A DNA stretch of 34,453 nt from Elusimicrobiota bacterium (GTDB lineage Bacteria > CAYTYR01 > UBA6262), in contig JACRDM010000013.1 in the NCBI GenBank assembly GCA_016218565.1, positions 1 to 34,453 on the forward strand. Reading direction: 5' to 3'. Below the pieces are notes generated by a model, which made no database searches, was not told the DNA's origin, and worked only from the letters and a program-made list of their open reading frames with translations. This document shows positions 1,587 to 21,356 of this stretch, piece by piece (positions within the stretch are counted from its first letter, which is position 1; each line of letters opens with the position of its first letter). Position numbers and translations under genes: made by a program.

Positions 1587-2643
1587 CGCTTGACTCCCCG
1601 CTGTCTTGTGAACGCTGTCCACTGTTATTTGCCGCCAACTGGCCGCAGGCTGCAAAAATATCTGCGCCCCGTGATTTCCTGATCGTGACCGGCACTTTTC
1701 TACTCTTAAGCCACGCGGCGAACTGCTCCCTGCCGGCTTTTTTTACTGGCTGGTATGGTAATTCCGGCACTGGATTAAACGGTAGTAAGTTTACTTTGCC
1801 TTTCAAGCCATGCGTTATGGCCGCCAGCCGCTGGGCATCGATCAGGGTATCGTTAACACCTTTAAGTAAAATATATTCTAAAGTGATGATCCGGCCGGTA
1901 TGCTGGAAATAATCAGAGCAGGTTTTCAAGACTTCTTTCAGCGGATACTTTTTATTGATCGGCATGATCCTGGCGCGTTGTTTATCAATCGTGGCATGTA
2001 ATGACAGGGAGAGATTCGTCTGCAGGTCAAAATCAATAAGTTTCTTGATGCCGGGTAAATACCCGGCCGTGGAAATGGTAATTCTGCGCGCCGCTATTTC
2101 CGGGCCTTCCTCGCTATTGATGATCCTGATCGCTTTCGTGACATTCTCATAATTCTCCAGCGGTTCCCCCATACCCATAAAGACAATATTAGTTATTTTG
2201 GCTGGTGCTTGTCGTTGCACATACAGGAGTTGATCTATGATCTCCGCAACTGTGAGATTGCGCACATAACTTTTCAGTCCGCTGGCGCACATGCCACAAG
2301 AAAATTTACAGCCCACCTGGGTGGAGACACAAAGCGTCTTCCGCACACCGGCAGGAATAAAGACAGATTCTACCTGATTTCCATCGGCTAATTTGAGAAG
2401 ATACTTACGGGAGCCATCCTGGGAAATAAATTCCCGAGCGTTGGAAAAAGAATTGAGCTTATAATTCCCGGTCAAAACCTGCAATAAAGCTTTGGGCAGG
2501 TTGTCCATCTCCGCAAATTCTCGCCCGCCTTTTTTGTAAATCCAGTGAAATACCTGGCCGGCGCGATACCCTGGCCAACCCAATCTTTTAAAATCCTCTT
2601 TTAATTCCGGCAAAGTATAGTCTTTTATTAACCGCAAATTCAC
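1546..2643 (-). CDS. rlmN: 23S rRNA m2A2503 / tRNA methyltransferase RlmN (radical SAM)
   Basis: CVSTQVGCKFSCGMC (CxxxCxxC), VFMGMGEPL, SLHA and ACGQL. Confidence 0.96.
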   Translation of the reverse strand: MNLRLIKDYTLPELKEDFKRLGWPGYRAGQVFHWIYKKGGREFAEMDNLPKALLQVLTGNYKLNSFSNAREFISQDGSRKYLLKLADGNQVESVFIPAGVRKTLCVSTQVGCKFSCGMCASGLKSYVRNLTVAEIIDQLLYVQRQAPAKITNIVFMGMGEPLENYENVTKAIRIINSEEGPEIAARRITISTAGYLPGIKKLIDFDLQTNLSLSLHATIDKQRARIMPINKKYPLKEVLKTCSDYFQHTGRIITLEYILLKGVNDTLIDAQRLAAITHGLKGKVNLLPFNPVPELPYQPVKKAGREQFAAWLKSRKVPVTIRKSRGADIFAACGQLAANNSGQRSQDSGESSVERKSQEIQDSGV

Positions 2644-2662
2644 TCCCCGGCCCGTATATTCT

Positions 2663-2696
2663 CTCTAGCCCTCTACCACTTACCACTCTAGCACTG
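2663..2696. repeat. CTCTACCA/CTTACCA short tandem array
   Basis: ctctagcc-ctctacca-cttacca-ctctagca-ctg, directly after the rubrerythrin stop codon. Confidence 0.8.
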
Positions 2697-2697
2697 T

Positions 2698-3276
2698 CTA
2701 ATAATTCTCCGCCAGCACCTCATAGTACGCCTGCGGATGCTTGCAAGCCGGGCATTCCTTGGGCGCTTCATTCCCTTTAAATACATAGCCGCAGTTGAGG
2801 CAGTGCCATTTCACGGCTGCTTTCTTTCTAAATACTTCCCCGTTAGCCAAATTATTAATCAAAGCCCTGTACCTGGCTTCGTGAAATTTCTCTACTTTGG
2901 ATATTTGCTCAAAAGCTCGGGTCACTTCTGTAAACCCTTCATCCTTGGCAGCCTTAGCAAAATCCTGATAAATGCTTGTCCATTCCGCATTTTCACCAGC
3001 CGCCGCTGCCGCCAAATTACTCTTCGTATCTTTTATCATGCCAGCCGGATATTTAGCTGTAATTTCCGTATCGCCGCCGGCCAGGAATTTAAAGAATATT
3101 TTAGCATGTTCTTTTTCATTCTCCGCAGTTTCTATAAAAAAATTGGCAATTTGTTCGTAACCTTCTTGGCGCGCGGCGCTGGCAAAATAGGCATACCTGT
3201 TCCTGGCTTGTGATTCACCGGCAAACGCCGCTAACAAGTTCTTCTCTGTCTTAGTACCTTTCAATGAGTTGCCCAT
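2698..3276 (-). CDS. rbr: Rubrerythrin
   Basis: [16 protein letters not shown] and EKFH di-iron ligands, C-terminal CLNC...CPAC rubredoxin-like site. Confidence 0.96.
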
Positions 3277-3342
3277 ATTTATTCTCCTTTTACTGTTATG
3301 GTCTTTATTTAAGACTATATTAGTCCTACAAGTATAGAAATT

Positions 3343-3981
3343 TCACACAATTACCATACTATTAATCAGAGCTTTTAGGTATTGGCTGATCCGCCGGTTG
3401 ATACTCGGAAATTCTCTATTAGCCAGCCAATCGGCACGAAAAACGCTGGAACCAAAGGTAACCGCACTGGCGCCATTGAATACATAGATTTTCAGATTTG
3501 CGGGGGAAACACCGCCGCAAGCCATCAGCTCGATGTTATTGAAAGGGCCCTTAAGCTCTTTGAAATATTCCGGCCCAAAGGTTTTGGCCGGGAAAACCTT
3601 GACCATGGTCGCGCCTGCCTGCCAGGCCTTAAAAATTTCCTGCGGGGTCAAAGCGCCGGGAAACACCGGGATCTTATTAGTGACACAATATTTTACCACC
3701 TCCGGCACCAGCGTCGGCAGCACTATGAAAGTAGCCCCGGCCTTAAGAGCAGAGTGCAGGCTTTCCAGATCAAGTACCGTGCCGGCGCCAATAGTTAAGC
3801 GCCCGGCAGCTTTTTTAACGGCCTGACGGATCAACTGCTCTGCTCCGTCTGTATTCATAGTGATTTCAATGGTCTGCAAACCGGCATCAATCACGGTTTC
3901 CAGCAATGGATTGATCACCTCAAAGTTCACGCCGCGCATAATACCGATGATCGGCTGTTGTTTGAATTTGGCTAAGTTCAT
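3343..3981 (-). CDS. eda: KDPG/KHG aldolase family protein
   Basis: IEIT, IGAGTV, PGALTPQEI, VKVFPA (Schiff-base Lys), ELKGPF and CGGV. Confidence 0.9.
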   Translation of the reverse strand: MNLAKFKQQPIIGIMRGVNFEVINPLLETVIDAGLQTIEITMNTDGAEQLIRQAVKKAAGRLTIGAGTVLDLESLHSALKAGATFIVLPTLVPEVVKYCVTNKIPVFPGALTPQEIFKAWQAGATMVKVFPAKTFGPEYFKELKGPFNNIELMACGGVSPANLKIYVFNGASAVTFGSSVFRADWLANREFPSINRRISQYLKALINSMVIV

Positions 3982-4932
3982 CTATTCCTCGTCTGCGCCG
4001 ACCAGGCTTTCGTAAAATTCCCGGTAGTTTTCCTTTTTATCGCCATTACGCAAGGCCATCGCCGCCCGCGGATGTTCATCCAGGATACCGGTGATCATGT
4101 AGGGAATAATATAGCCCCATTCAATTTTTTCCCGCAGGGGTACAAATTCCTTAGAGATCACATCCAGGATCGGACGAATGTCAAATTTGGGATTTTTCAG
4201 GAAGCTCATGATCAGTTCCAGCGGACAGTTGCCGGCCGCGCGGCCGAGGCCATAAATAGTCGCGTCCACATAATTGGCATCATGGATAATAGCTTCAATA
4301 GTGTTACCAAAAGCCAACTGCTGGTTGTTATGAGCATGTATGCCCACTTCTTTCGTTTTCAGGATGCTCTTAGCCTTCTTGATCAGGAATTCGGTAGTCT
4401 CCTGGTACAAAGCGCCAAAGCTATCCACAATATAAATCACTTGTGCTTTACATTCTTTTTCCAGCTGCTGCAACGCTTCAGTCAGTTCATTATCCAACGC
4501 CCGGGAAATCGCCATAATATTCACCGTCGTTTCATAACCTTTATCCGCAAAATGATTTACCAAATAAATAGCTTTATCAATGTCTTTGACATAGGAAGCC
4601 ACGCGGATCATCGCTACCGGACTGTCTTTGCGCGGCTTAATATCTTCAACATCCACCCGGTCCACATCCACCATTACGGATATTTTAGTCTTTGACTCAA
4701 TTCCATCGATGACTTTCCTGATATCATCATCTTCGCAGAATTTCCATATCCCGTAATCCTTGGCGCTAAAAAGCCTTTTGGAATTCTTATATCCTATCTC
4801 CATATAATCAACCTTAGCTTCGGAAAGGGCTTTATACACTTCACGCACGAAACGGTGATCAAAATTATGGTTATTGATCAACCCCCCATCCCTGATGGTA
4901 CAATCCAATACTTTAATTTTATCTCTGAACAT
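3982..4932 (-). CDS. DRE-TIM metallolyase / HMGL-like aldolase catalytic-domain protein
   Basis: LDCTIRDGG, VDSFG, GIHAHNN and GRAAGN. Start moved to the ATG at 4932 behind GAGGAGGAGGG. Its stop abuts the eda start. Confidence 0.88.
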   Translation of the reverse strand: MFRDKIKVLDCTIRDGGLINNHNFDHRFVREVYKALSEAKVDYMEIGYKNSKRLFSAKDYGIWKFCEDDDIRKVIDGIESKTKISVMVDVDRVDVEDIKPRKDSPVAMIRVASYVKDIDKAIYLVNHFADKGYETTVNIMAISRALDNELTEALQQLEKECKAQVIYIVDSFGALYQETTEFLIKKAKSILKTKEVGIHAHNNQQLAFGNTIEAIIHDANYVDATIYGLGRAAGNCPLELIMSFLKNPKFDIRPILDVISKEFVPLREKIEWGYIIPYMITGILDEHPRAAMALRNGDKKENYREFYESLVGADEE

Positions 4933-4974
4933 CCCTCCTCCTCGTTTATTAGTCTCGTCATTCGGTTGCGGCTT

Positions 4975-5008
4975 CGAGGCCCGATTAAAGCTTTCTTTTC
5001 GGGTTTCG
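4975..5008 (-). promoter_or_regulatory. Stem-loop in the 5' leader of the aldolase operon (candidate cis-regulatory RNA)
   Basis: mRNA strand reads CGA-AA-CCCGA-AAAG-AAAG-CTTT-AA-TCGGG-CC-TCG, with a GAGAC motif on each side. Confidence 0.4.
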
Positions 5009-5034
5009 TCTCCGTACACCGTATACCGAGTTCA

Positions 5035-5062
5035 CTTTACCCCTCTACCACTCTACCACTGT
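5035..5062. repeat. CTCTACCA short tandem array
   Basis: ctttaccc-ctctacca-ctctacca-ctgt. Confidence 0.78.
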
Positions 5063-5141
5063 ATTTAAAAACTAGATAAAAGAATATTATTGAATTAGCC
5101 TATTGTTTTATGCCATAATTAAAAAGACTTTAACCCTAAAA

Positions 5142-5176
5142 ACTAGCGACCAGTCACTAGCGACTAGTTACTAACT
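5142..5176. repeat. ACTAGCG-type heptamer array
   Basis: actagcg-accagtc-actagcg-actagtt-actaact. An inverted partner, ctagtcgct, lies at 5245..5253. Confidence 0.72.
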
Positions 5177-5206
5177 TGAAGTATAGGAATTTCAATCCTA
5201 TACTTG
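5175..5206. repeat. 32-bp dispersed palindrome, copy 1
   Basis: CTTG-AAGTATAGGA-ATTTCAA-TCCTATACTT-G (10-bp stem). Its reverse complement matches 13648..13679 at 31 of 32 positions. Confidence 0.88.
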
Positions 5207-5284
5207 ATTACACGGATTTCCAAAAGATTACACCGATTACAAGCCTAGTCGCTGATAAAAATCTCTGTAATAATCTGGGTAATC
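5206..5284. repeat. GATTACAC / GTAATC inverted short-repeat cluster
   Basis: gattacacggatt and gattacaccgattac, followed by aatctctgtaat and aatctgggtaatc. Confidence 0.7.
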
Positions 5285-5325
5285 AGTTAGCGGAACGAAG
5301 TGGAGCCTAACTTGAGGTGTTTCCC

Positions 5326-6429
5326 ATGATCACTACTAATCCTTTTACTCCGCAATCCGGCTGGGAGCCTAAAATATTCGGCGGACGCGAAGAACAAGTA
5401 CAGCATTTCCTGAAAACCATGGAAGAAGCGGTGCTGAGCCGGTCTAATCACATGGTCATTATCGGACAGTGGGGTATCGGTAAAACCAGCCTGCTTAAAC
5501 AATTTAAGAAAATTTCACAAGAACAGGGTTACTTAGCCAGTTTTTGCCCGATCAGCCAGGCAAAAGAACGTTCCTCAACTACAGCAGCCGTCAATCTTAT
5601 CATGCAGGAAATACTAAACGGATTCCCTAAATCCATCACCGAATCCAAGCCGGCCAAGCAAAAACTACAGTCGCAGGTATTGTTTACGCAATTTTTATTG
5701 GAACTTTGGCCGCAACTTAATACGAGGCTCGCGGTAGTACTGCTGGATGATGTGCAAAACATGGCCACTGTATCCACTGTTATTGACCTCCTCCGCGCGG
5801 TTTTAAGCAAGGAGGAAGTCATTAGTCGGACCAGGTTCTTATTCGTACTGGCCTCTACGACCGAGGGTTGGGAAAATTTTATCAATAAGCATGATCCTAT
5901 CGGTCGTTTTTTCCGGCGGCGCGAAATGATCAACGATTTAACCGCTGCCGAGACACAATCGGTAATTACCAACACCTTGGCCGGTACAGGTGTGTCGTTT
6001 GACCAGGAAATCATCAAAACCATATACCGCTATACGCAAGGACACCCTTATGAACTGCAATTGCTAGCCAGCCATCTTTTTGAAGCCCAATTACAGGGTA
6101 AAGTGACGATGAGTGAATGGCTGCCCGCCTTTAAAAATACCTTGCGTGAACTGGGCAAGGATTATTTCCAGAGTTTGTTCGAGCGAGCAAGCGACCGGGA
6201 AAAAGAAGTGTTGTTAGTACTGGCAGAGTCTAAAGCAGCATTGCCGCAAAGTGAGATTAGAAGGATAATGATCGTGGAAAAGCATGCTAAAAACTTCCCC
6301 GTGGCCAATATAAAAAACTTCCTGTATCGCTTGCATGACAAAGGGCTGGTCAAGCGCCTGGCCAATGGCAATTTCCAGATACTCGACCCGATTTTTGGAG
6401 AATATGTTAAAAGCAATTACGCTGATTAG
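5326..6429 (+). CDS. AAA/STAND-like P-loop ATPase with C-terminal winged helix (archaeal-ATPase/AAA_16-like)
   Basis: NPF..FGGRE N-terminus, Walker A GQWGIGKTS, Walker B VVLLDD, GHPYELQ, and an LYRLHDKGLV wHTH-like tail. ATG at 5326 follows GAGGTG. Confidence 0.85.
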   Translation: MITTNPFTPQSGWEPKIFGGREEQVQHFLKTMEEAVLSRSNHMVIIGQWGIGKTSLLKQFKKISQEQGYLASFCPISQAKERSSTTAAVNLIMQEILNGFPKSITESKPAKQKLQSQVLFTQFLLELWPQLNTRLAVVLLDDVQNMATVSTVIDLLRAVLSKEEVISRTRFLFVLASTTEGWENFINKHDPIGRFFRRREMINDLTAAETQSVITNTLAGTGVSFDQEIIKTIYRYTQGHPYELQLLASHLFEAQLQGKVTMSEWLPAFKNTLRELGKDYFQSLFERASDREKEVLLVLAESKAALPQSEIRRIMIVEKHAKNFPVANIKNFLYRLHDKGLVKRLANGNFQILDPIFGEYVKSNYAD

Positions 6430-6433
6430 AAGA

Positions 6434-6523
6434 ACAGATTTCGCGGATTAGAGCATTTATCCACCTAATCTGTATTTCGAATCCGCGCCTGTCCCCGCAG
6501 TTTTGACCCGTTTATCGGGGTCA
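6434..6523. repeat. Inverted repeats / possible bidirectional terminator between convergent genes
   Basis: acagatt/aatctgt and cgcggatt/aatccgcg pairs (6434..6487), plus a tgaccc/gggtca hairpin (6504..6523). Confidence 0.55.
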
Positions 6524-6539
6524 GCAGGGAATAATCGTT

Positions 6540-7868
6540 TCATCTCACCGCGGGATTATATTTTAAGCTGTTCGGGAGGCATGAACATTCAAAAGCAATA
6601 TTGAATTTGGCTATTTTGCCCTGGTTTTTCAGTTCGAAGAGCCGGGGCACCATTTTATCCCGCAAACTAACCGGATCTATAGTATTAATATAAATCTTGG
6701 TTCCGCCTTCAAAGCCGGCCGGAGTATTCACCCGCCACTTAATCAGGATATGCCAAGGCATGGCAAAATCAGCGTCTAACGGCTTATAATACCACTCTTC
6801 ATTGCAGGGTATACGGGAGCCCATAGCAGCATGGCAACCATGGACAATATCGCTGAAACCTTTTATTTCTTCATCGCTTAATTCCCAGATATTTGAATAC
6901 AGGCTCTTGGAATAGACCGCAATAGTAGGATACCGGTGCCCGAAATCGGCAAAAGCCACGGCATAATCGTTCTCGGCAAAGACCAGGTTCTGATAGCCGG
7001 CATAATTAGCTGCCAGTTCATTGTAAATATTGGGATTGCTCCGCACTAATTCACTTTCTTCCTCAATAGATGTCCCCCATTCATCAATCGCTACTAATTG
7101 TTTATGTAAGTGATCAAAACTGGCGCCAGCGCTGGAAAGCCAGTTTTGGAACACGCTGATATACCTTACATAGCGGTTATTCTGGTGGATCGCCTTAATA
7201 GCCTCAATCGTAAATTTAATATACAAAAAATGCTCTTCCGGGGTAAGTTCGCCGGAGGAACATAGTTGGGAATCATATTCAGCGGTATCAGTATAATGTT
7301 TATTGGCCACGACCAGCTCATGACTGCCGCCGAAAAAGGCATCAGCCATGTCTAGTTTGACTTCCCGGCTAATTTTCTGCGGATCTTTACCTAACAGGGT
7401 TATTTTCATATCAATTATTTTAAAAACATGGTCCTGGCCAGCTTGGGTGGACAGGTAGCTGTTCTTCCAGTTTACCAGCTCCAGCGGCAGGCAAAAAGCA
7501 TAGTTCTTAACCCAATAATCATAGGAGACTATTTCAAATAAATTAGGGATGCGCCGCAATAAGGGAACGGTTTTACTAAGATCCTGGGCCGCGACCTTAT
7601 ATAATATTTTATATTTATCGTTTTCTTTGATCAGCCGTGATTTTTCCGGAGGAGTATTTAAGTAATTAGCCGCGCAGAAATTGCAGTAATCCTCCAGCGT
7701 ATGCCTTTCGATCTTTTTGGCGTTTTTAGGTATTTCATTAGTAATGGGTTTGCCGGCCCGGCCAGGCACGGTCCATACTTCGGTACCGGTGAATGGGTTT
7801 AATTGTTTGATGGTGCCGTCAGGCATTTTGTCGAGGTACTTGCCGGTGATCGGCCGATTATTGGCCAT
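6540..7868 (-). CDS. DUF4921-like protein, GalT/HIT-fold nucleotidyltransferase-like
   Basis: DGTIKQLNPFTGTEVWTVPGR N-terminus, CNFC, and NW..AGASFDHLHKQ (HxHxQ as in GalT). ATG at 7868 follows GAGGAG. Confidence 0.8.
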   Translation of the reverse strand: MANNRPITGKYLDKMPDGTIKQLNPFTGTEVWTVPGRAGKPITNEIPKNAKKIERHTLEDYCNFCAANYLNTPPEKSRLIKENDKYKILYKVAAQDLSKTVPLLRRIPNLFEIVSYDYWVKNYAFCLPLELVNWKNSYLSTQAGQDHVFKIIDMKITLLGKDPQKISREVKLDMADAFFGGSHELVVANKHYTDTAEYDSQLCSSGELTPEEHFLYIKFTIEAIKAIHQNNRYVRYISVFQNWLSSAGASFDHLHKQLVAIDEWGTSIEEESELVRSNPNIYNELAANYAGYQNLVFAENDYAVAFADFGHRYPTIAVYSKSLYSNIWELSDEEIKGFSDIVHGCHAAMGSRIPCNEEWYYKPLDADFAMPWHILIKWRVNTPAGFEGGTKIYINTIDPVSLRDKMVPRLFELKNQGKIAKFNIAFECSCLPNSLKYNPAVR

Positions 7869-7940
7869 ACCTACTCCTCTGGCGTTCAAAATTGGATATA
7901 AACCCGCTCTTCTATTTTAAGAACGAGCCTTCCACAAAAA

Positions 7941-8000
7941 CCCCTCGCTTGTCCCTCTCTAGCGGATAACTCTGGCCAGAAATAAAGAGGGACTGGGTGA
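7941..8000. repeat. Imperfect GC-rich palindrome (REP-like)
   Basis: gtccctct (7951..7958) pairs with agagggac (7986..7993), flanked by cccctc and gggtga. Confidence 0.5.
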
Positions 8001-8048
8001 ACAGCTTTATTTTACTTAAAAGCAACCCATTTTTCAACTAATAATTGC

Positions 8049-8591
8049 TTATTTCTTCTTTTCTACACTGATGATCTTAAATTTAAAAATAAACTCTTTC
8101 TTTACCCCTTTGATCTCTAGCGGGAAATATAAGCCAAACTCCTTACCTAGATATGTTTTGGCGTCATTGGGAAACAATGGTACAATATCCCAGCCGTAAA
8201 CCAGGTCATTAGCCCGGAAAAAGATATTTTGCGCGGGGATGATGGTCTCGGAGATCGACAAGCCAGGGGGCACCATTACCGCAGCTTGTGGAGCAAAACG
8301 GTCAGCAAAGCGAATATTACTAGAAACTATCCGTAAACTCGCGCCACCTGGAGAAATATACGATATTTCATCATAATTCACCTTGATCCCATTCAGAGTC
8401 TTGTTTTTCAATTCAAAATTTATACTTTTGTCATCCACCAAGAAGTTGAGATCTATATCCTCATCACTATAAGTAAGAGTGTCAGCCGGAACAGGCGCTT
8501 GCATTTTGATACCCCACGTAAGCACACTGGGGGCGCAACCTGTTAATAGTATCAAGTAGAAAATGATGGCTAAACTCTTAAGCTTATACAT
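8049..8591 (-). CDS. Hypothetical lipoprotein
   Basis: Basic N-terminus, hydrophobic stretch and lipobox LLTG-C. Mature part looks beta-rich. No family recognised. Confidence 0.75.
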   Translation of the reverse strand: MYKLKSLAIIFYLILLTGCAPSVLTWGIKMQAPVPADTLTYSDEDIDLNFLVDDKSINFELKNKTLNGIKVNYDEISYISPGGASLRIVSSNIRFADRFAPQAAVMVPPGLSISETIIPAQNIFFRANDLVYGWDIVPLFPNDAKTYLGKEFGLYFPLEIKGVKKEFIFKFKIISVEKKK

Positions 8592-8605
8592 ATTTTACCT
8601 TATCC

Positions 8606-8656
8606 CTCTACCACTTTACCACTTACCACTCTATCACTCTACCACTCTACCACTGT
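8606..8656. repeat. CTCTACCA/CTTACCA short tandem array (longest copy)
   Basis: ctctacca-ctttacca-cttacca-ctctatca-ctctacca-ctctacca-ctgt, directly after the LarA-like stop codon. Confidence 0.9.
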
Positions 8657-8657
8657 T

Positions 8658-10043
8658 TTACTTCCCCAGTACGCATAATTTATTCGCCTCATCCACACAC
8701 CATATTTTCCCGTCTTGCCGGGCAGCCCGCTCATTGATCCACTTTTGCGGGTCAGGCTCAGGTATAAAACCGCCTTTGAGCGCTGCAGCATCGGGTAATT
8801 GGGAATAAAGGTATATCTTGATCTTGGAATCTTTGAACAGCTTAATTACCCGGTCAGTCTTCCACATGAACAATTTAAAATTTTTATCCACAAAACTTAT
8901 CCACTCGGACAGGGGCCTATTAAGATACTTCACCAGGGTATCCCAGAACAGTTCCATGGATTCCGGATCCGGGCAGATACCTCGAATATGACCCGGCACT
9001 TCCGGGCGTCCATTACAAGGGGCAATAACCAGGGCTTCGCCTCCTGACTGCAGCGCTCCTTTGATGACCATGTCAAAACCATTCTGCACATAATAAAGGG
9101 TTTCGCTGGCAGGCGGCCCGCCTGGAGATTGGATCAGATATTTTGTTTTGTCCACTGTAAAACCAAGAAATTTATCCACCGCCGCAGTGACATCCTGGCA
9201 GACGAGGTCCGGATCGCCGCAATCGATCCAGAATATTTTATCTTTCTGGCTGACCATATCCAGTCCGAAAGTAATTACTGCTGCTTCCTGGAGTTGGCCG
9301 CCAGCCAGGTCATAGAGGTATTTTTCACTTATCTTGCGGCACTGCTTGTTGTCTTGGGAAAAAGGATTGTTCTGGCGGGATTGATCCTGGTGCCAGGCAT
9401 TCTTGCCAGCCACAGAATCATGATGGCGCAATGCCAGTTTGTGATTAGTCTGGATAGAAGCGTGGGCAGACAAGCCGGGAACAATGTGCTTATCAATACA
9501 GGAATAACCGTTCATATAATGATACTTGGCTTCATGGCCATGCACTCTGATCGGACAGGACAGCCACATTTTATGGATATGAACCGGGGTGCGATAGGTG
9601 GTATCCCCCAGGTAAATGTAGTCTTCCTGGCGCTCACAATAATTAGGGAATATTTGATATTTTAATTTTAGTTCAGCGGCATACTGGTTTATCCAGGCCG
9701 TGATATTCTTGGCATAGATTTCCGGATGGTGAGAGCCGGTAGCGATAAATATAAATACTTCAGCCGGTTGCCCCGCGGCAATCTCGGCCAGAAGACAGGA
9801 AATTATCTGTTCCTGTAACCCGAGCCGCAATTCGTCAGACACCACAAGCCCTACCCTTTGGTCTTTGACCACCGCACGCAGTTTAGGCCGGTTTTTCGGG
9901 GTTTGAAAACTTTGCCGGATGATCTCACCGGGGGTCCCGGGTAGAGCCTGGCTTACCTTGGGTTTGATCAAGGGGCCAGCTAGAAATTGATCCTGGACAT
10001 CCAAACTGATCTTATCTTGGCCGTAAGTTAATTCTATTTTCAC
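8658..10043 (-). CDS. LarA-family (lactate racemase-like, nickel-pincer) 2-hydroxyacid racemase/epimerase homologue
   Basis: MKIELTYG start, VVSDELR, IATGSH, H-x9-K-x15-H (HYMNGYSCIDK...NH) and SPGGPP...TLY. Confidence 0.8.
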   Translation of the reverse strand: MKIELTYGQDKISLDVQDQFLAGPLIKPKVSQALPGTPGEIIRQSFQTPKNRPKLRAVVKDQRVGLVVSDELRLGLQEQIISCLLAEIAAGQPAEVFIFIATGSHHPEIYAKNITAWINQYAAELKLKYQIFPNYCERQEDYIYLGDTTYRTPVHIHKMWLSCPIRVHGHEAKYHYMNGYSCIDKHIVPGLSAHASIQTNHKLALRHHDSVAGKNAWHQDQSRQNNPFSQDNKQCRKISEKYLYDLAGGQLQEAAVITFGLDMVSQKDKIFWIDCGDPDLVCQDVTAAVDKFLGFTVDKTKYLIQSPGGPPASETLYYVQNGFDMVIKGALQSGGEALVIAPCNGRPEVPGHIRGICPDPESMELFWDTLVKYLNRPLSEWISFVDKNFKLFMWKTDRVIKLFKDSKIKIYLYSQLPDAAALKGGFIPEPDPQKWINERAARQDGKIWCVDEANKLCVLGK

Positions 10044-10126
10044 TTCAGTCAGTCCTCCTGTTCTAATATATTATCTCTAGCCGCAAATACGGGTTACGCG
10101 GCTGTTTCTCTATGGGTCTAACAGGG

Positions 10127-10816
10127 TTAGTCTCGCACCTCGTCTGGAAAGTTAGAGATGATCCCTGAGACATCTAATTGCCGGCACATGGCGGCCTGTT
10201 TTTTAGAATTCACAGTCCAGACATAGACTTCCAGGCCGGCAGCCTGGGCCAGGGAAACTTTTTTCTGACTTACTTCTTTGATATTACTAGAAATTGCGCA
10301 GGCTTTCAGTTTCAGAGCCGTTCTTAATACTTTGGGAAATGGCTGCCGGATATGCAGTACCGCTATGGCTATCTGCCGATTCTTGCTCCGCAAATAGGCT
10401 AAAGCCGGCCAGTTGAACGAGCATACTAGTGGTGGATATTTCAGTTTAAATTGTCTCAATAATTTGACCAACGCCTCAACCAGCGGGTGATAATCTTTAT
10501 CGTCATGATACTTCAGTTCTATCATCAATTGCGGACCACCATAACAATTTTTTAAAAGCTCAGCCAGAGTCGGAATGCTTGCTCCCGGTACGGCCTTAAA
10601 TTGCTTCAGTTCAGCCAGAGTGTGAGCCGCAAGCTGGCCATAGCCATTCGTGGTTCTTTCCAGCGTCTGGTCATGAAATACTACTACTTTCCGGTCCTTG
10701 GTTAGTTGTATATCCAGCTCAAATCCGTCCACCCCAAGCTCATGAGCCTTAGCAAACGCCAATATAGTGTTTTCCGGATACTGGCCGGAAAATCCGCGAT
10801 GGGCAAATACTTTCAC
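10127..10816 (-). CDS. Glycerophosphodiester phosphodiesterase (UgpQ/GlpQ family)
   Basis: AHRG, PENT, ELDIQ, HD..LERTTNG, IELK and WTVN. GTG at 10816 follows AGGAGG. Confidence 0.92.
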   Translation of the reverse strand: MKVFAHRGFSGQYPENTILAFAKAHELGVDGFELDIQLTKDRKVVVFHDQTLERTTNGYGQLAAHTLAELKQFKAVPGASIPTLAELLKNCYGGPQLMIELKYHDDKDYHPLVEALVKLLRQFKLKYPPLVCSFNWPALAYLRSKNRQIAIAVLHIRQPFPKVLRTALKLKACAISSNIKEVSQKKVSLAQAAGLEVYVWTVNSKKQAAMCRQLDVSGIISNFPDEVRD

Positions 10817-10908
10817 CCTATTAGACCTCCTTTGTGTCTCTGTGCCTATTACGCCTTTAGGCCTAACCACGAACGACTAATGGCTCTTTCCATCAACTAT
10901 TAACTTTC

Positions 10909-10950
10909 TTCTACCACTTATCACTTTACCACTTACCACTCTATCACTGC
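10909..10950. repeat. CTCTACCA/CTTACCA short tandem array
   Basis: ttctacca-cttatca-ctttacca-cttacca-ctctatca-ctgc, about 10 nt after the glmS stop. Confidence 0.85.
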
Positions 10951-10959
10951 TCTCCGTTT

Positions 10960-12789
10960 TTATTCCACTGTTACTGATTTAGCCAGATTGCGCGGCTGGT
11001 CCACATCGCACCCGCGGCGCTCGGCAATATGATAAGCTAACAACTGCAGCGGGATCACATTAAGCAGCGGCGATAATATTTCCAGGGTTTCCGGCACAAA
11101 AAAGACATAATCAGCTTTCTTCTTAATACTTTCATCCCCTTCAGTCGCCAGAATAATGACGATACCAGCGCGGGCTTTGACTTCTTCAATATTAGACAGT
11201 ATTTTTTCATAGGTTTTGCATTTGGTGGCAATAGCCAGAACCGGCATATTTTCATCGATCAAGGCAATCGGGCCATGTTTCATCTCGCCGGCCGGATAAC
11301 CTTCAGCATGGATATAGGAAATTTCCTTAAGCTTTAAGGCTCCTTCCAGGGCAATCGGGTAATTAACATTGCGTCCCAGGTAGAGAAAATCAGTTTTTTT
11401 GAAAAAGTCCTGGGCAATTTTTATTATCTCTCCAGCAGTGGCCAGGATTTTTTCCACCTGGGAAGGTATATGCATCATTTTTTCAATGATCGTTTGCGCT
11501 TCTTCCTTAGACATAATACCTCGCCTGCGTCCCAGATACAAGAGAATAATATATAGCGCTGTTAATTGCGCGGTAAAAGCCTTGGTGGAAGCAACCCCGA
11601 TCTCTGGTCCAGCATGCGTATAGATCGTACCATCGGCGGCCCGGGTAATGGTACTGCCAACCACGTTGCAGATAGACAAAATTTTACTGCCTTTAGTTTT
11701 GGCTTCACGCAAACCGGCCAAGGTATCAGCTGTTTCGCCTGATTGCGAAATAACGATGACCAGTGTTTGGCAGTCAATGATCGGGTTACGATAGCGAAAT
11801 TCACTGGCCATATCCACCTCACTGGGGATCCGCAGATAATCTTCAAATAAATACTTGCCGACCAGGCCGGCATGGTAACTGGTGCCACAGGCCACGACAA
11901 ATATTTTATTGATGTTCTGGACATAATCAGGTTCCAGTTGCACTTCTTCCAGGAATATTTCACCTTCCTCCGGCATAACCCGTCCGCGAAAAGTATCGAG
12001 AATAACCTGGGGCTGTTCAAATATCTCTTTCAGCATGAAATGCTTGAACCCTGCTTTTTCAGTTTTGATCGGATCCCAAGTAATGACGTTTACCTTTTTC
12101 TTGATTTCCTGGCCTGCTTTATCATAGATAATGATTCCAGCCACGGTCAGTCTGGCAGAATCACCATCATCAAGGTAAATCACTTTCCTGGTATGCTGGA
12201 GGATCGCCGGCGCGTCACTGGCAATAAAATATTCCCCTTCCCCAACACCCAAAATCAAAGGGCTGCCATTACGGGCAGCAACAATGGTAGCCGGGTCTTT
12301 TCTGGAAATAACGCCTAAAGCATAGGAGCCTGCTAATTCTTTTAACGTCTCCCGCAGAGCTTTGTGCAGATCACCCTGATAATGCTTCTCCAGCAAATGC
12401 GCCACTACTTCAGTATCGGTTTCACTCTTAAAGATATGCCCTTCTTTGAGCAATTGTTTTTTCAGCAGATGGTAATTTTCAATAATACCATTATGCACGA
12501 CTACCAGATCCCCGGTGCAGTCAGTATGCGGATGAGCATTTTCTTCACTGGGTTTGCCGTGTGTAGCCCAGCGGGTATGACCAATGCCAACGATCCCGGC
12601 TAACGGGTTTTTCTTGACAGTATCTTCCAAATTGGCAAGCTTGCCGGCACTGCGCCGCAACTTAATCTGACCATCCTGCAACACCGCAATTCCGGCTGAA
12701 TCATAACCGCGGTATTCCAGCCGCTTTAATCCGTCAATAAGTATACTAACCGCATCTTTTTTCCCAATATAGCCAACAATACCGCACAT
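10960..12789 (-). CDS. glmS: Glutamine--fructose-6-phosphate aminotransferase
   Basis: MCGIVG, EYRGYDSAG, HTRWATHG, SQSGET and the PRNLAKSVTVE C-terminus. Confidence 0.98.
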   Translation of the reverse strand: MCGIVGYIGKKDAVSILIDGLKRLEYRGYDSAGIAVLQDGQIKLRRSAGKLANLEDTVKKNPLAGIVGIGHTRWATHGKPSEENAHPHTDCTGDLVVVHNGIIENYHLLKKQLLKEGHIFKSETDTEVVAHLLEKHYQGDLHKALRETLKELAGSYALGVISRKDPATIVAARNGSPLILGVGEGEYFIASDAPAILQHTRKVIYLDDGDSARLTVAGIIIYDKAGQEIKKKVNVITWDPIKTEKAGFKHFMLKEIFEQPQVILDTFRGRVMPEEGEIFLEEVQLEPDYVQNINKIFVVACGTSYHAGLVGKYLFEDYLRIPSEVDMASEFRYRNPIIDCQTLVIVISQSGETADTLAGLREAKTKGSKILSICNVVGSTITRAADGTIYTHAGPEIGVASTKAFTAQLTALYIILLYLGRRRGIMSKEEAQTIIEKMMHIPSQVEKILATAGEIIKIAQDFFKKTDFLYLGRNVNYPIALEGALKLKEISYIHAEGYPAGEMKHGPIALIDENMPVLAIATKCKTYEKILSNIEEVKARAGIVIILATEGDESIKKKADYVFFVPETLEILSPLLNVIPLQLLAYHIAERRGCDVDQPRNLAKSVTVE

Positions 12790-12802
12790 AATTCCTCCAA
12801 AA

Positions 12803-12916
12803 AAATGACAAATTTCAAATTCCTATACTATGAATTACCAATAACCAATGACAAATTGTTATTGGAATTTGGGATTTAAGAGATTTATTTGTCATTTGGA
12901 TTTTGTCATTTGATAT
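12803..12916. repeat. Inverted heptamer array (AAATGAC / GTCATTT type)
   Basis: Left arm aaatgac-aaatttc-aaattcc...caataac-caatgac. Right arm ...tttgtc-atttgga-ttttgtc-atttgat. Confidence 0.8.
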
Positions 12917-21231: not shown

Positions 21232-21249
21232 AAATCTTATTTTACCACC

Positions 21250-21276
21250 AACTATCAACTATGAACTATCAACTGT
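21250..21276. repeat. AACTATC heptamer array
   Basis: aactatc-aactatg-aactatc-aactgt, between the tRNA and tilS. Confidence 0.8.
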
Positions 21277-21283
21277 ATTTATA

Positions 21284-21356
21284 TAGCTGGGGCGAGAGTT
21301 GAACTCGCGACCAACGGCTTATGAGTCCGCTGCTCTACCAACTGAGCTACCCAGCC
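21284..21356 (-). tRNA. tRNA with CAT anticodon, most likely elongator tRNA-Met
   Basis: 73-nt cloverleaf GGCTGGG-TAGCTCAGTTGGTAGAGC-A-GCGGA-CTCATAA-GCCGT-TGGTC-GCGAG-TTCAACT-CTCGC-CCCAGCT-A. CCA is not encoded. It lacks the three anticodon-stem G-C pairs of initiator tRNA. Confidence 0.93.

Follow-up and report, generated by a model that had tools for sequence, protein, structure and literature searches.

What accounts for several short tandem arrays that share a unit, a polarity and a place at the ends of genes? The question is raised by a 34,453-nt stretch of DNA from an Elusimicrobiota bacterium (contig JACRDM010000013.1 of assembly GCA_016218565.1; hereafter, the window), in which four arrays of 8- and 7-nt units, numbered here 1 to 4, lie at gene junctions. 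The window constitutes contig C49 of a 1.75-Mb draft metagenome-assembled genome (MAG) in 152 contigs, with 44% G+C and a completeness of 91%. The original prediction, made from the nucleotide sequence alone, regarded the arrays as the mark of an undescribed system: either scars or targets of a dedicated repeat-depositing mechanism, or binding tracks for an RNA-binding or (anti)termination factor. The analysis reported here leads us to regard them as, probably, inserted, fast-turnover, junction-filling non-coding repeats of the class already described as short tandemly repeated repetitive (STRR) or heptamer sequences, with no dedicated sequence-specific function in evidence.

The four arrays are real and are built from common units, AGTGGTAG(AG) and AGTGGTA. 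All genes adjoining them in the window are on the minus strand, so that the sense (mRNA) strand of every array is the purine-rich one, as had been predicted. Arrays 1, 3 and 4 closely follow a stop codon, which also agrees with the prediction (Table 1). Arrays 2 to 4 were listed by Tandem Repeats Finder (TRF), whose entries for the window include period 8 x 3.5, period 8 x 6.2 and period 7 x 4.0; array 1, a short, degenerate run of AGTGGTA and AGTGGTAG with two clean units by regular expression, was unlisted at score 30.

Short-period arrays across the genome

TRF reported 943 tandem-repeat loci in the whole genome. Among arrays of at least 2.8 copies, 194 had a period of 7, 52 of 8, 29 of 9 and 26 of 6, with at most 11 arrays for each of the other periods. 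At the same threshold, three dinucleotide-preserving shuffles of the genome contained 2, 7 and 4 arrays of period 7 and 7, 4 and 4 of period 8; the approximately 250 period-7 and period-8 arrays in 1.75 Mb are about 40 times as many as in shuffled sequence. They comprise dozens of unit families, the commonest being ATAGCGT (39 arrays), GATAGTT (15) and AAATATC (14). Arrays with periods of 6 to 9 are intergenic in 180 of 301 cases, although the caller of open reading frames (ORFs) marks about 90% of the genome as coding. Most of these 180 (151) separate co-oriented genes; convergent pairs account for 13 and contig ends for 12. Divergent spacers, whose length would predict about 20, hold 4. Within co-oriented spacers, 88 of 172 arrays begin no more than 12 nt past the stop codon, compared with 44 expected if each array were placed uniformly within its own spacer, and purine-rich sequence prevails in the arrays placed 5' in the spacer (71/88).

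Many arrays are inverted pairs, in which a stop codon is followed by (ATAGCGN)n, a short loop, (NCGCTAT)n, a ribosome-binding site (RBS) and a start codon. At least five reverse-complement 6-mers were common to the array and its surroundings for 87 of the 172 arrays (70 of the 120 with period 7), compared with 24 of 172 in a random-flank control. Among paired elements, purines predominate in the arm that follows the stop (32/35) and pyrimidines in the arm that precedes the start (32/37). Because an element consisting of a purine arm, a loop and a pyrimidine arm is its own reverse complement, the polarity of the two-armed form is a handedness inherent in the element and does not orient it with respect to genes. 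Since stop codons consist of T followed by two purines, the units of the purine-first arm are rich in stops, and several ORFs draw their stop codon from the first unit of an array.

The arrays of the window represent one genus-specific family, hereafter the TGGTAGAG (GTGRTA) family, whose unit of 7-8 nt is AGTGGTAR with zero or one extra purine. Chaining of AGTGRTA cores at a spacing of 7-9 nt yielded 28 arrays of this family, each with 2-6 clean units. On the G-rich strand, 15 of the 28 arrays have, within -9 to +15 nt upstream, the stop codon of an ORF that is 80 or more codons long, compared with 1 of 28 on the C-rich strand; the same rate at random intergenic positions is 11.4% (5,000 draws). 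Judging from the gene calls, the gene upstream of regular-expression matches of the TGGTAGAG type is on the same strand in 26 cases and on the opposite strand in 4. Thus, the genome-wide scan suggested along with the original prediction confirmed both the bias of the family in strand and stop proximity and, for period-7 and period-8 arrays as a whole, the excess over shuffled sequence.

It had further been noted that the arrays begin with ACAG or GCAG. This is the case for all four arrays, as well as for the heptamer arrays at 1598-1625 and 21248-21276, and within the TGGTAGAG family the C is a genuine edge: it directly adjoins the first core on its 5' side in 13 of 28 arrays (as AC in 8 of 28), whereas only 1 of 59 inner cores has a C there. 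The motif does not extend to the other families. When all families are considered, CAG is found within 12 nt past the stop at 16% of array junctions (n = 88) and at 17% of array-free junctions (n = 633), and a general CAG start rule was rejected, the two rates being nearly equal; AACAG past the stop occurs at 7% and 2% of these junctions, respectively. A likeness between the start of array 3, CAGTGGTAGAG (8645-8656), and the D-arm of tRNAs is probably a coincidence; CAGTTGGTAGAG is present in 3 of 25 tRNAs (C49, C123 and C144).

The TGGTAGAG arrays are one-armed: an inverted partner (reverse complement within 150 nt) was found for none of the 11 family arrays in co-oriented spacers, and two further regular-expression matches with partners belong to other unit types. 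The array RNA is C-free, forms no fold and contains stop codons in all three frames; that of array 3 is essentially unstructured (minimum free energy -0.2 kcal/mol, z +0.67), and so is that of array 1 (z +0.82). By eye, GAGTGG in the distal units is often altered to GAGGGG or GAGGGA, which gives a Shine-Dalgarno-like core shortly before the next start (arrays 1-3, C34, C109 and locus L144). The arrays resemble neither intrinsic terminators nor a known RNA family: an Rfam scan returned no family match for them, tRNA-Met being the only match, and there were 12 terminator-like sites compared with 13.8 expected, none on arrays. Promoter-like sites likewise showed no excess, and none fell on the arrays.

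Insertion at orthologous junctions

We compared all 9 species genomes of the phylum in the collection, namely, this genome (G000), its congeners G001 to G005, G006 from the sister genus, and G007 and G008 from another family. A five-protein tree relates G000 to G006 as (G006,(G001,(G000,(G002,(G004,(G003,G005)))))). The pattern GTGGTARAGTGGTA has 18 matches in this genome, 21 in G004, 11 in G005, 3 in G003 and 1 in G001, but none in G002, the sister genus or the two genomes of the other family, and the reversed control had 0 matches in every genome. In G004 and G005, the succession of stop, AAC and AGTGG (TAA-AAC-AGTGG) appears at other, non-orthologous junctions. Thus, the unit and its 5' flank (stop, AAC, AG) recur at non-orthologous junctions in this genome and in four of the five congeners, in line with the earlier argument that independent slippage would not produce such arrays. 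A few short runs in G004 and G005 are located in frame within large coding regions; those of 2-4 TGGTAGAG-type units at L146 and L147 (G004, contig C8) lie in frames that are open over all of the sequence retrieved and apparently translate into SGKVV-like repeats.

Of 16 junctions compared, about half bear an array in at least one species, and none keeps one unit across all array-bearing species. The LarA-like junction carries an array in every species, with five unit types in six species: AGCTCNT in G001 and G005, GTCAAAG in G002, TTAYGAG in G003 and TGAGTTT in G004, all of them two-armed, and a single TGGTAGAG arm here. Past the rubrerythrin stop, units of the GTGRTA type are present here and in G001 and G005, and AGTTGATAG in G002 and G003; since all arrays at this junction start with TAA/TAG-(A)ACAGT, the CAG edge must predate the units now found there. 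The RlmN-HAD junction also carries arrays in G001-G003. The hairpin in the PdxJ-GlmS spacer is present in G003, and G002, G004 and G005 have a spacer of 51-58 nt with other units. Furthermore, contigs of relatives in three groundwater metagenome runs skip or replace arrays 1, 3 and 4.

The true start of the GDPD gene is GTG 10814-10816, which leaves a GlmS-GDPD spacer of 143 nt that includes array 4. A mere 2 nt separate the GlmS stop from the GDPD start in G002, G004 and G005; the junction is likewise compact in the outgroup G006, and a relative's contig (run X3) joins position 10815 to 10960 with 4 letters between them. In G001, GlmS is followed by about 230 nt of AGGCACA-type arrays, a gene of the four-helix-bundle family PF05635, TTGTGCC-type arrays, an RBS and GDPD, the PF05635 gene being split across the ends of contigs C193 and C188. 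In G003, only the first ~45 nt of the 5' arm of this cassette remain, fused to the RBS. The spacer of the window contains an AGGCACA remnant, AGGCACAGAGACACAAAGG, fused to a cassette-type RBS and start, GGAGGTCTAATAGG-GTG (10814-10830), and upstream of the remnant lie runs of three other families, array 4 among them. Cassettes on C43 and C123, as well as 13 AGGCACA-type elements, have the same GGAGGTCTAATAGG-GTG at their 3' end. According to the five-protein tree, a cassette at this junction requires at least two gains or several precise losses.

Array DNA was thus inserted, as follows from the existence of filled and compact forms of orthologous junctions, and the comparison of orthologous junctions proposed with the original prediction revealed all three anticipated states: presence, absence and a cargo gene (the PF05635 cassette at GlmS-GDPD of G001). 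Of the proposed repeat-depositing mechanism, the insertion therefore stands, but a dedicated enzyme is not evident. Similarly, the statement that no four-helix-bundle gene accompanies the arrays is true of the window but not of the genome, where there are 4 such genes, all in inverted arrays, nor of the array-4 junction in G001.

PF05635 matches number 4 in this genome, on contigs other than the window, and 3-7 in each of the five congeners; none was found in the window or in G006-G008. Inverted arrays enclose 4 of 4 of these genes here and 17 of 20 examined in the congeners (21 of 24 in total), where arms were judged by inspection and by shared reverse-complement 7-mers and four listed matches were left out. 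Of the remaining congener genes, one has a 3' array only and two, an orthologous pair in another gene context, have no arrays. Array density, as sampled, ranges from 6 to 32 per 100 kb within the genus, with 14 in this genome, compared with 2-4 in G006-G008, but this co-occurrence with PF05635, confined to the genus, carries no statistical weight because it is a single contrast among kin. In some four-helix-bundle genes (C43:14444-14758; G001:C16; G005:C60), an in-frame stop (TAA, TAG or TGA) points to decaying copies. By eye, the 3' arm of cassettes L122, L123, L124, L127 and L136 (G002, G003 and G005) lies within the signal-peptide coding sequence of a downstream gene of outer-membrane type, and is hence translated. 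A full-text literature search, with subscription journals and closed supplements outside its scope, found no published link between PF05635 and heptamer repeats.

Table 1. Arrays and related repeat features of the window; position 1 is the first nucleotide of the window.
Feature	Coordinates	Strand	Units or sequence	Position
Heptamer run	1598..1625	-	ACAGTGG ACAGCGT TCACAAG ACAGCGG	Within the 3' tail of the RlmN-like ORF, RlmN-HAD junction
Array 1	2661..2697	-	Sense: ACAGTGCTAG AGTGGTA AGTGGTAG AGGGCTAG AGAG	1 nt past the rubrerythrin stop (2698-2700); upstream of the RlmN-like gene
Dispersed hairpin element	4933..5027	-	GGTRTAC heptamers (5012-5027), CCCGAAAAG...TCGGG hairpin (4980-5003), degenerate CCGNAAC arm	Directly downstream of array 2
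Array 2	5033..5062	-	Sense: ACAGTGGTAGAGTGGTAGAGGGGTAAAGTG; 3.5 octamer units (TRF period 8 x 3.5)	Divergent spacer, ~100 nt upstream of the HMGL-like ATG (4932)
Array 3	8598..8656	-	7 units	3 nt past the LarA-like stop (8658-8660)
Rest of the GlmS-GDPD spacer	10817..10909	-	Short runs TAATAGTTGATGG (10890-10902) and AGTCGTTCGTGGTT (10865-10878); AGGCACA-type cassette-arm remnant (10829-10847)	
Array 4	10910..10948	-	5 units (AGTGATAG/AGTGGTA)	11 nt past the GlmS stop (10960-10962)
Two-arm heptamer hairpin, for comparison	12790..12916	-	AAATGAC arm (12887-12912), GTCATTT arm (12803-12820)	Fills the PdxJ-GlmS spacer
Heptamer array	21248..21276	-	ACAGTTGATAG	8 nt past tRNA-Met (21284-21356); overlaps the start region of the next ORF

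The genes next to the arrays are ordinary or housekeeping ones, encoding rubrerythrin, RlmN-like, LarA-like and GDPD proteins, KDPG aldolase, GlmS and PdxJ. Array 3 occupies its entire spacer, up to the RBS and ATG (8591) of a lipoprotein-like gene, and its last unit is mutated to GAGGGATAAGG. With no stop in the RlmN frame, the run at 1598-1625 is read through by the RlmN ORF, which extends 11 nt into the next gene. Alignments of relatives to the longest HMGL-like ORF begin only at residue 30, which is why the start was placed at ATG 4932. The dispersed hairpin element next to array 2 is similar to the flanks of a four-helix-bundle cassette on contig C88 and has BLAST copies on C135, C48, C83, C3, C30, C38 and C46; moreover, the composite order of array, GTTGATAG and CGTTCGTRG recurs on C97 (78-nt alignment, 72% identity, E 1e-5).

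Several other repeats were observed alongside these. In the divergent spacer at 5046-5339, which precedes the gene for an nSTAND-type NTPase, ACTAGCG and GATTACAC arrays form a patchwork together with a conserved piece, agttagcggaacgaagtggagcctaac, found again on C92 and C98; a summed contig depth of 919 in run X1, compared with 5-30 elsewhere, marks the spacer as a multi-copy element. A translation-start module, GAGGTCTAAC-NGG-GTG-AA, is conserved in front of at least 20 genes (for example, at 10814-10830 of the window and on C6, C10, C29, C34, C41 and C105). Its core has 77 sites, 13 of which have AGGCACA/TTGTGCC arrays just upstream, and divergent gene pairs bear the module on both sides. 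A palindromic element resembling repetitive extragenic palindromic (REP) sequences, at 6486-6530, begins with CCTGTCCCCGC, an 11-mer with 35 copies in the genome; the CCTGTCCCCGC element is also located inside the heptamer hairpin of a sister species (LarA junction of G004, L083).

Origin and possible roles of the arrays

The TGGTAGAG family is one part of a far larger population of short-period tandem repeats that colonises intergenic spacers in the lineage. In other families the full form is seen: a purine-rich 5' arm at the stop is followed by a loop, with or without a promoter-less PF05635 gene, then by the complementary 3' arm, which is pyrimidine-rich, and by the RBS of the next gene. 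The TGGTAGAG family is the one-armed form. Its arrays are presumably co-transcribed with the operon, and their distal units would readily mutate to a Shine-Dalgarno-like GAGG. The family may spread when elements are copied or recombine, with slippage and homogenisation then acting on the arrays in place. The polarity could arise in part because copies descend together with their flank (stop, AAC, AG), and in part because purifying selection would retain insertions that end the upstream ORF at once and spare translation of the downstream gene. In any case, annotation of such genomes calls for caution, as the arrays can supply stops, Shine-Dalgarno sites and even starts, and can reach into coding regions.

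Several points weigh against this reading. The part assigned to purifying selection is conjectural. Array 2, located in a divergent spacer with no preceding stop codon, is a misfit to the after-stop rule, and one two-armed TGGTAGAG element, the only one seen, is present on contig C86 and repeated at the end of C41. Arms of the TGGTAGAG type flank none of the 24 PF05635 genes examined, which leaves shared behaviour and the array-4 spacer as the only ties between this family and the cassettes. No mobilising enzyme is evident: reverse transcriptase (PF00078) has no match in the 91% complete genome, and each of the five Y1 transposase genes is flanked by hairpins other than the arrays. Finally, the gene calls are crude (greedy choice of the longest ORF), the genomes are draft MAGs, and the sister species are kin, so that cross-species counts are not independent.

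Writing of the repeats by a reverse transcriptase was rejected on the first of these absences, and mobilisation by a REP-associated tyrosine transposase (RAYT) on the hairpins flanking the Y1 genes. In the window, an ORF at 107-772 on the minus strand encodes an IS200-like, RAYT-like Y1 transposase and lies between two identical CTCAACCGCGTAGGTTGAG hairpins (82-100 and 799-817), with 5 copies in the genome; the four other Y1 transposase genes, on other contigs, each have different flanking hairpins. Genes for Rho and RNase III are present in the genome. Avoidance of Rho is at best a partial cause of the polarity, because the paired 5' arms show no bias of G over C (17 vs 17); the single arms are C-poor on the sense strand, with C below 5% in 25 of 62 and G below 5% in 4 of 62.

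A more ambitious possibility, which we regard as rather improbable, is that the arrays are the footprints left by a mobile system centred on the Avd-like PF05635 gene: a promoter-less cassette that would insert exactly between a stop and the next start and contribute a stop-rich purine arm at one end and, at the other, an RBS and start. The tandem 7-8-nt arms would be written during insertion or repair, and the one-armed TGGTAGAG runs would have been left behind or seeded. If true, this would amount to a new class of bacterial mobile element and would account together for two old puzzles, the STRR/heptamer repeats and the rRNA intervening sequences that bear an ORF. The genus offers clean natural experiments, in which one and the same junction is compact, filled by a cassette, cut to one arm or overlaid by a second family, so that questions of insertion site, polarity and decay become testable by comparative genomics and reporter assays.

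A related suggestion, likewise doubtful, is that each TGGTAGAG array is what remains of a two-armed hairpin cassette, whether or not this carried the four-helix-bundle gene, after its 3' arm was lost, so that the lone 5' arm would have inherited its polarity from the cassette. The strongly unequal composition of the two arms of paired elements, the loss of one arm at the LarA junction relative to the congeners and the two-armed element on C86 are all consistent with such decay, as are the AGGCACA-arm remnant and cassette-type RBS end kept in the array-4 spacer, where G001 has the full cassette and G003 a 5'-arm-only remnant. However, the window arrays of the family have neither two inverted arms nor a PF05635 gene between arms, and a cassette remnant is found in the array-4 spacer alone, where the TGGTAGAG run adjoins the remnant of a different family and is not itself that remnant. 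The absence of partners from all 11 family arrays in co-oriented spacers and of TGGTAGAG arms from all 24 PF05635 genes also argues against this origin. Moreover, loss of 5' arms would predict that single arms near starts are mainly pyrimidine-rich, but this is the case in only 7 of 19.

The functional part of the original prediction fared worse. Arrays of the AGUGGUAGAG repeat could serve as multivalent binding tracks on mRNA or single-stranded DNA that tune termination, stability or re-initiation, with a cold-shock-domain or four-helix-bundle protein as the candidate ligand. As unstructured and C-free RNA, they would be fully accessible, and their strict strand bias and location between stop codon and RBS would suit such a role. 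Bacillus CspB binds heptamer repeats with one protein per heptamer, according to the accessible part of MacGregor 2015 (PMC4679880), and PF05635 proteins resemble the nucleic-acid-binding Avd of diversity-generating retroelements. However, the unit sequence differs at orthologous junctions from one sister species to the next, and such turnover argues against a sequence-specific track; dozens of unit families unrelated to one another are placed alike, the arrays adjoin housekeeping genes of unrelated kinds, and neither an Rfam family nor a terminator-like site coincides with the arrays. We consequently consider this role unlikely.

Independent replication slippage at each junction, yielding arrays that are alike by chance or by mutational preference, is highly improbable. 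Tandem units with point variants are an expected product of slippage, and the existence of related families one or two bases apart (AGTGGTA, AGTGATA and AGTTGATA) fits change in place. Nevertheless, 28 arrays of the same 7-8-mer occur in 1.75 Mb and none of the reversed pattern, and the shared non-repeat flanks, the array/GTTGATAG/CGTTCGTRG composite repeated on C97 and the gain of 70-140 nt at once at junctions that are compact in relatives all speak against it.

Short tandem repeats upstream of starts can switch expression in host-adapted pathogens. A contingency function of this kind, in which copy number would switch the downstream gene (phase variation, a role of such repeats also mentioned in the introduction of MacGregor 2015, PMC4679880), seems very unlikely here, since the neighbours are housekeeping genes (rubrerythrin, RlmN, GlmS, GDPD and LarA-like) rather than surface or restriction genes, and the arrays lie between stop and RBS rather than in promoters or reading frames; the accessible part of Rehm 2015 (PMC4692102) likewise rejects it for the repeats described there.

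Relation to known repeats

Bacterial heptamer repeats have been known since 1990 without an agreed origin or function. The STRR heptamers of heterocystous cyanobacteria, reportedly described in that year by Mazel et al., are said to be dispersed in intergenic regions, to comprise several unit types and to be transcribed with their neighbours. Set side by side by description, they share with the present arrays the dispersed intergenic tandem heptamers and the multiplicity of unit types, and differ in the units themselves and in the phylum. The arrays of the window thus have a match in a described repeat class, but the origin of that class is itself still unexplained.

REP sequences and bacterial interspersed mosaic elements (BIMEs) are also dispersed, oriented and transcribed intergenic repeats, often located just past the stops of operons, and are mobilised by RAYT (Y1) transposases. 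In contrast to the arrays, REPs are imperfect palindromes of about 35 nt and are not tandem. The arrays form no hairpin, and the hairpins flanking the RAYT-like gene of the window are of a different sequence.

The TAACTGA direct repeats of marine Beggiatoaceae, some Cyanobacteria and Bacteroidetes, with 2-6 units (MacGregor 2015, PMC4679880), are, as far as the accessible text goes, intergenic heptamers with stops in all three frames, some of which overlap upstream stop codons. In forward orientation these stops restrict overlap to the very end of an ORF. There, one unit dominates and most arrays lie toward starts, in 5' leaders, whereas here there are many units and the TGGTAGAG family lies mainly past stops.

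The two-armed cassettes recall the 23S rRNA intervening sequence of Coxiella burnetii, which bears an S23p/PF05635 gene (Warrier et al. 2016, PMC4990558). In both, going by the available portion of that paper, a small four-helix-bundle gene lies inside a long stem in a transcribed region, with 21 of 24 genes between inverted arms here. The sites differ, being mRNA junctions rather than rRNA helices, and the four arrays of the window have no partner arm or gene. Intervening sequences are excised by RNase III, for which the counterpart here is confined to the presence of the RNase III gene.

The closest geometry is that of the GGGNATC heptamers of Xanthomonas and Nostoc (Rehm 2015, PMC4692102), which the accessible part of that paper places at hundreds of dispersed sites, between aligned ORFs and rarely between divergent ones. 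Their G-rich strand is the coding strand within 50 bp past a stop, which some of them overlap, and the non-coding strand just before starts. The arrays analysed here share the tandem units of about 7 nt, the dispersed non-coding excess, the placement between aligned ORFs, the G-rich coding strand past stops and the ordinary metabolic neighbours, and with oriented heptamer arrays already on record, the claim of an undescribed system is not supported. The unit and the lineage are different, periods 7 and 8 are mixed, and, because the present units contain only GG runs, the G-quadruplex reading of the Xanthomonas and Nostoc repeats would not be expected to carry over. A further difference is that many unit families coexist in the one genome analysed here, with a link to four-helix-bundle cassettes that is absent from the accessible part of Rehm 2015 (PMC4692102).

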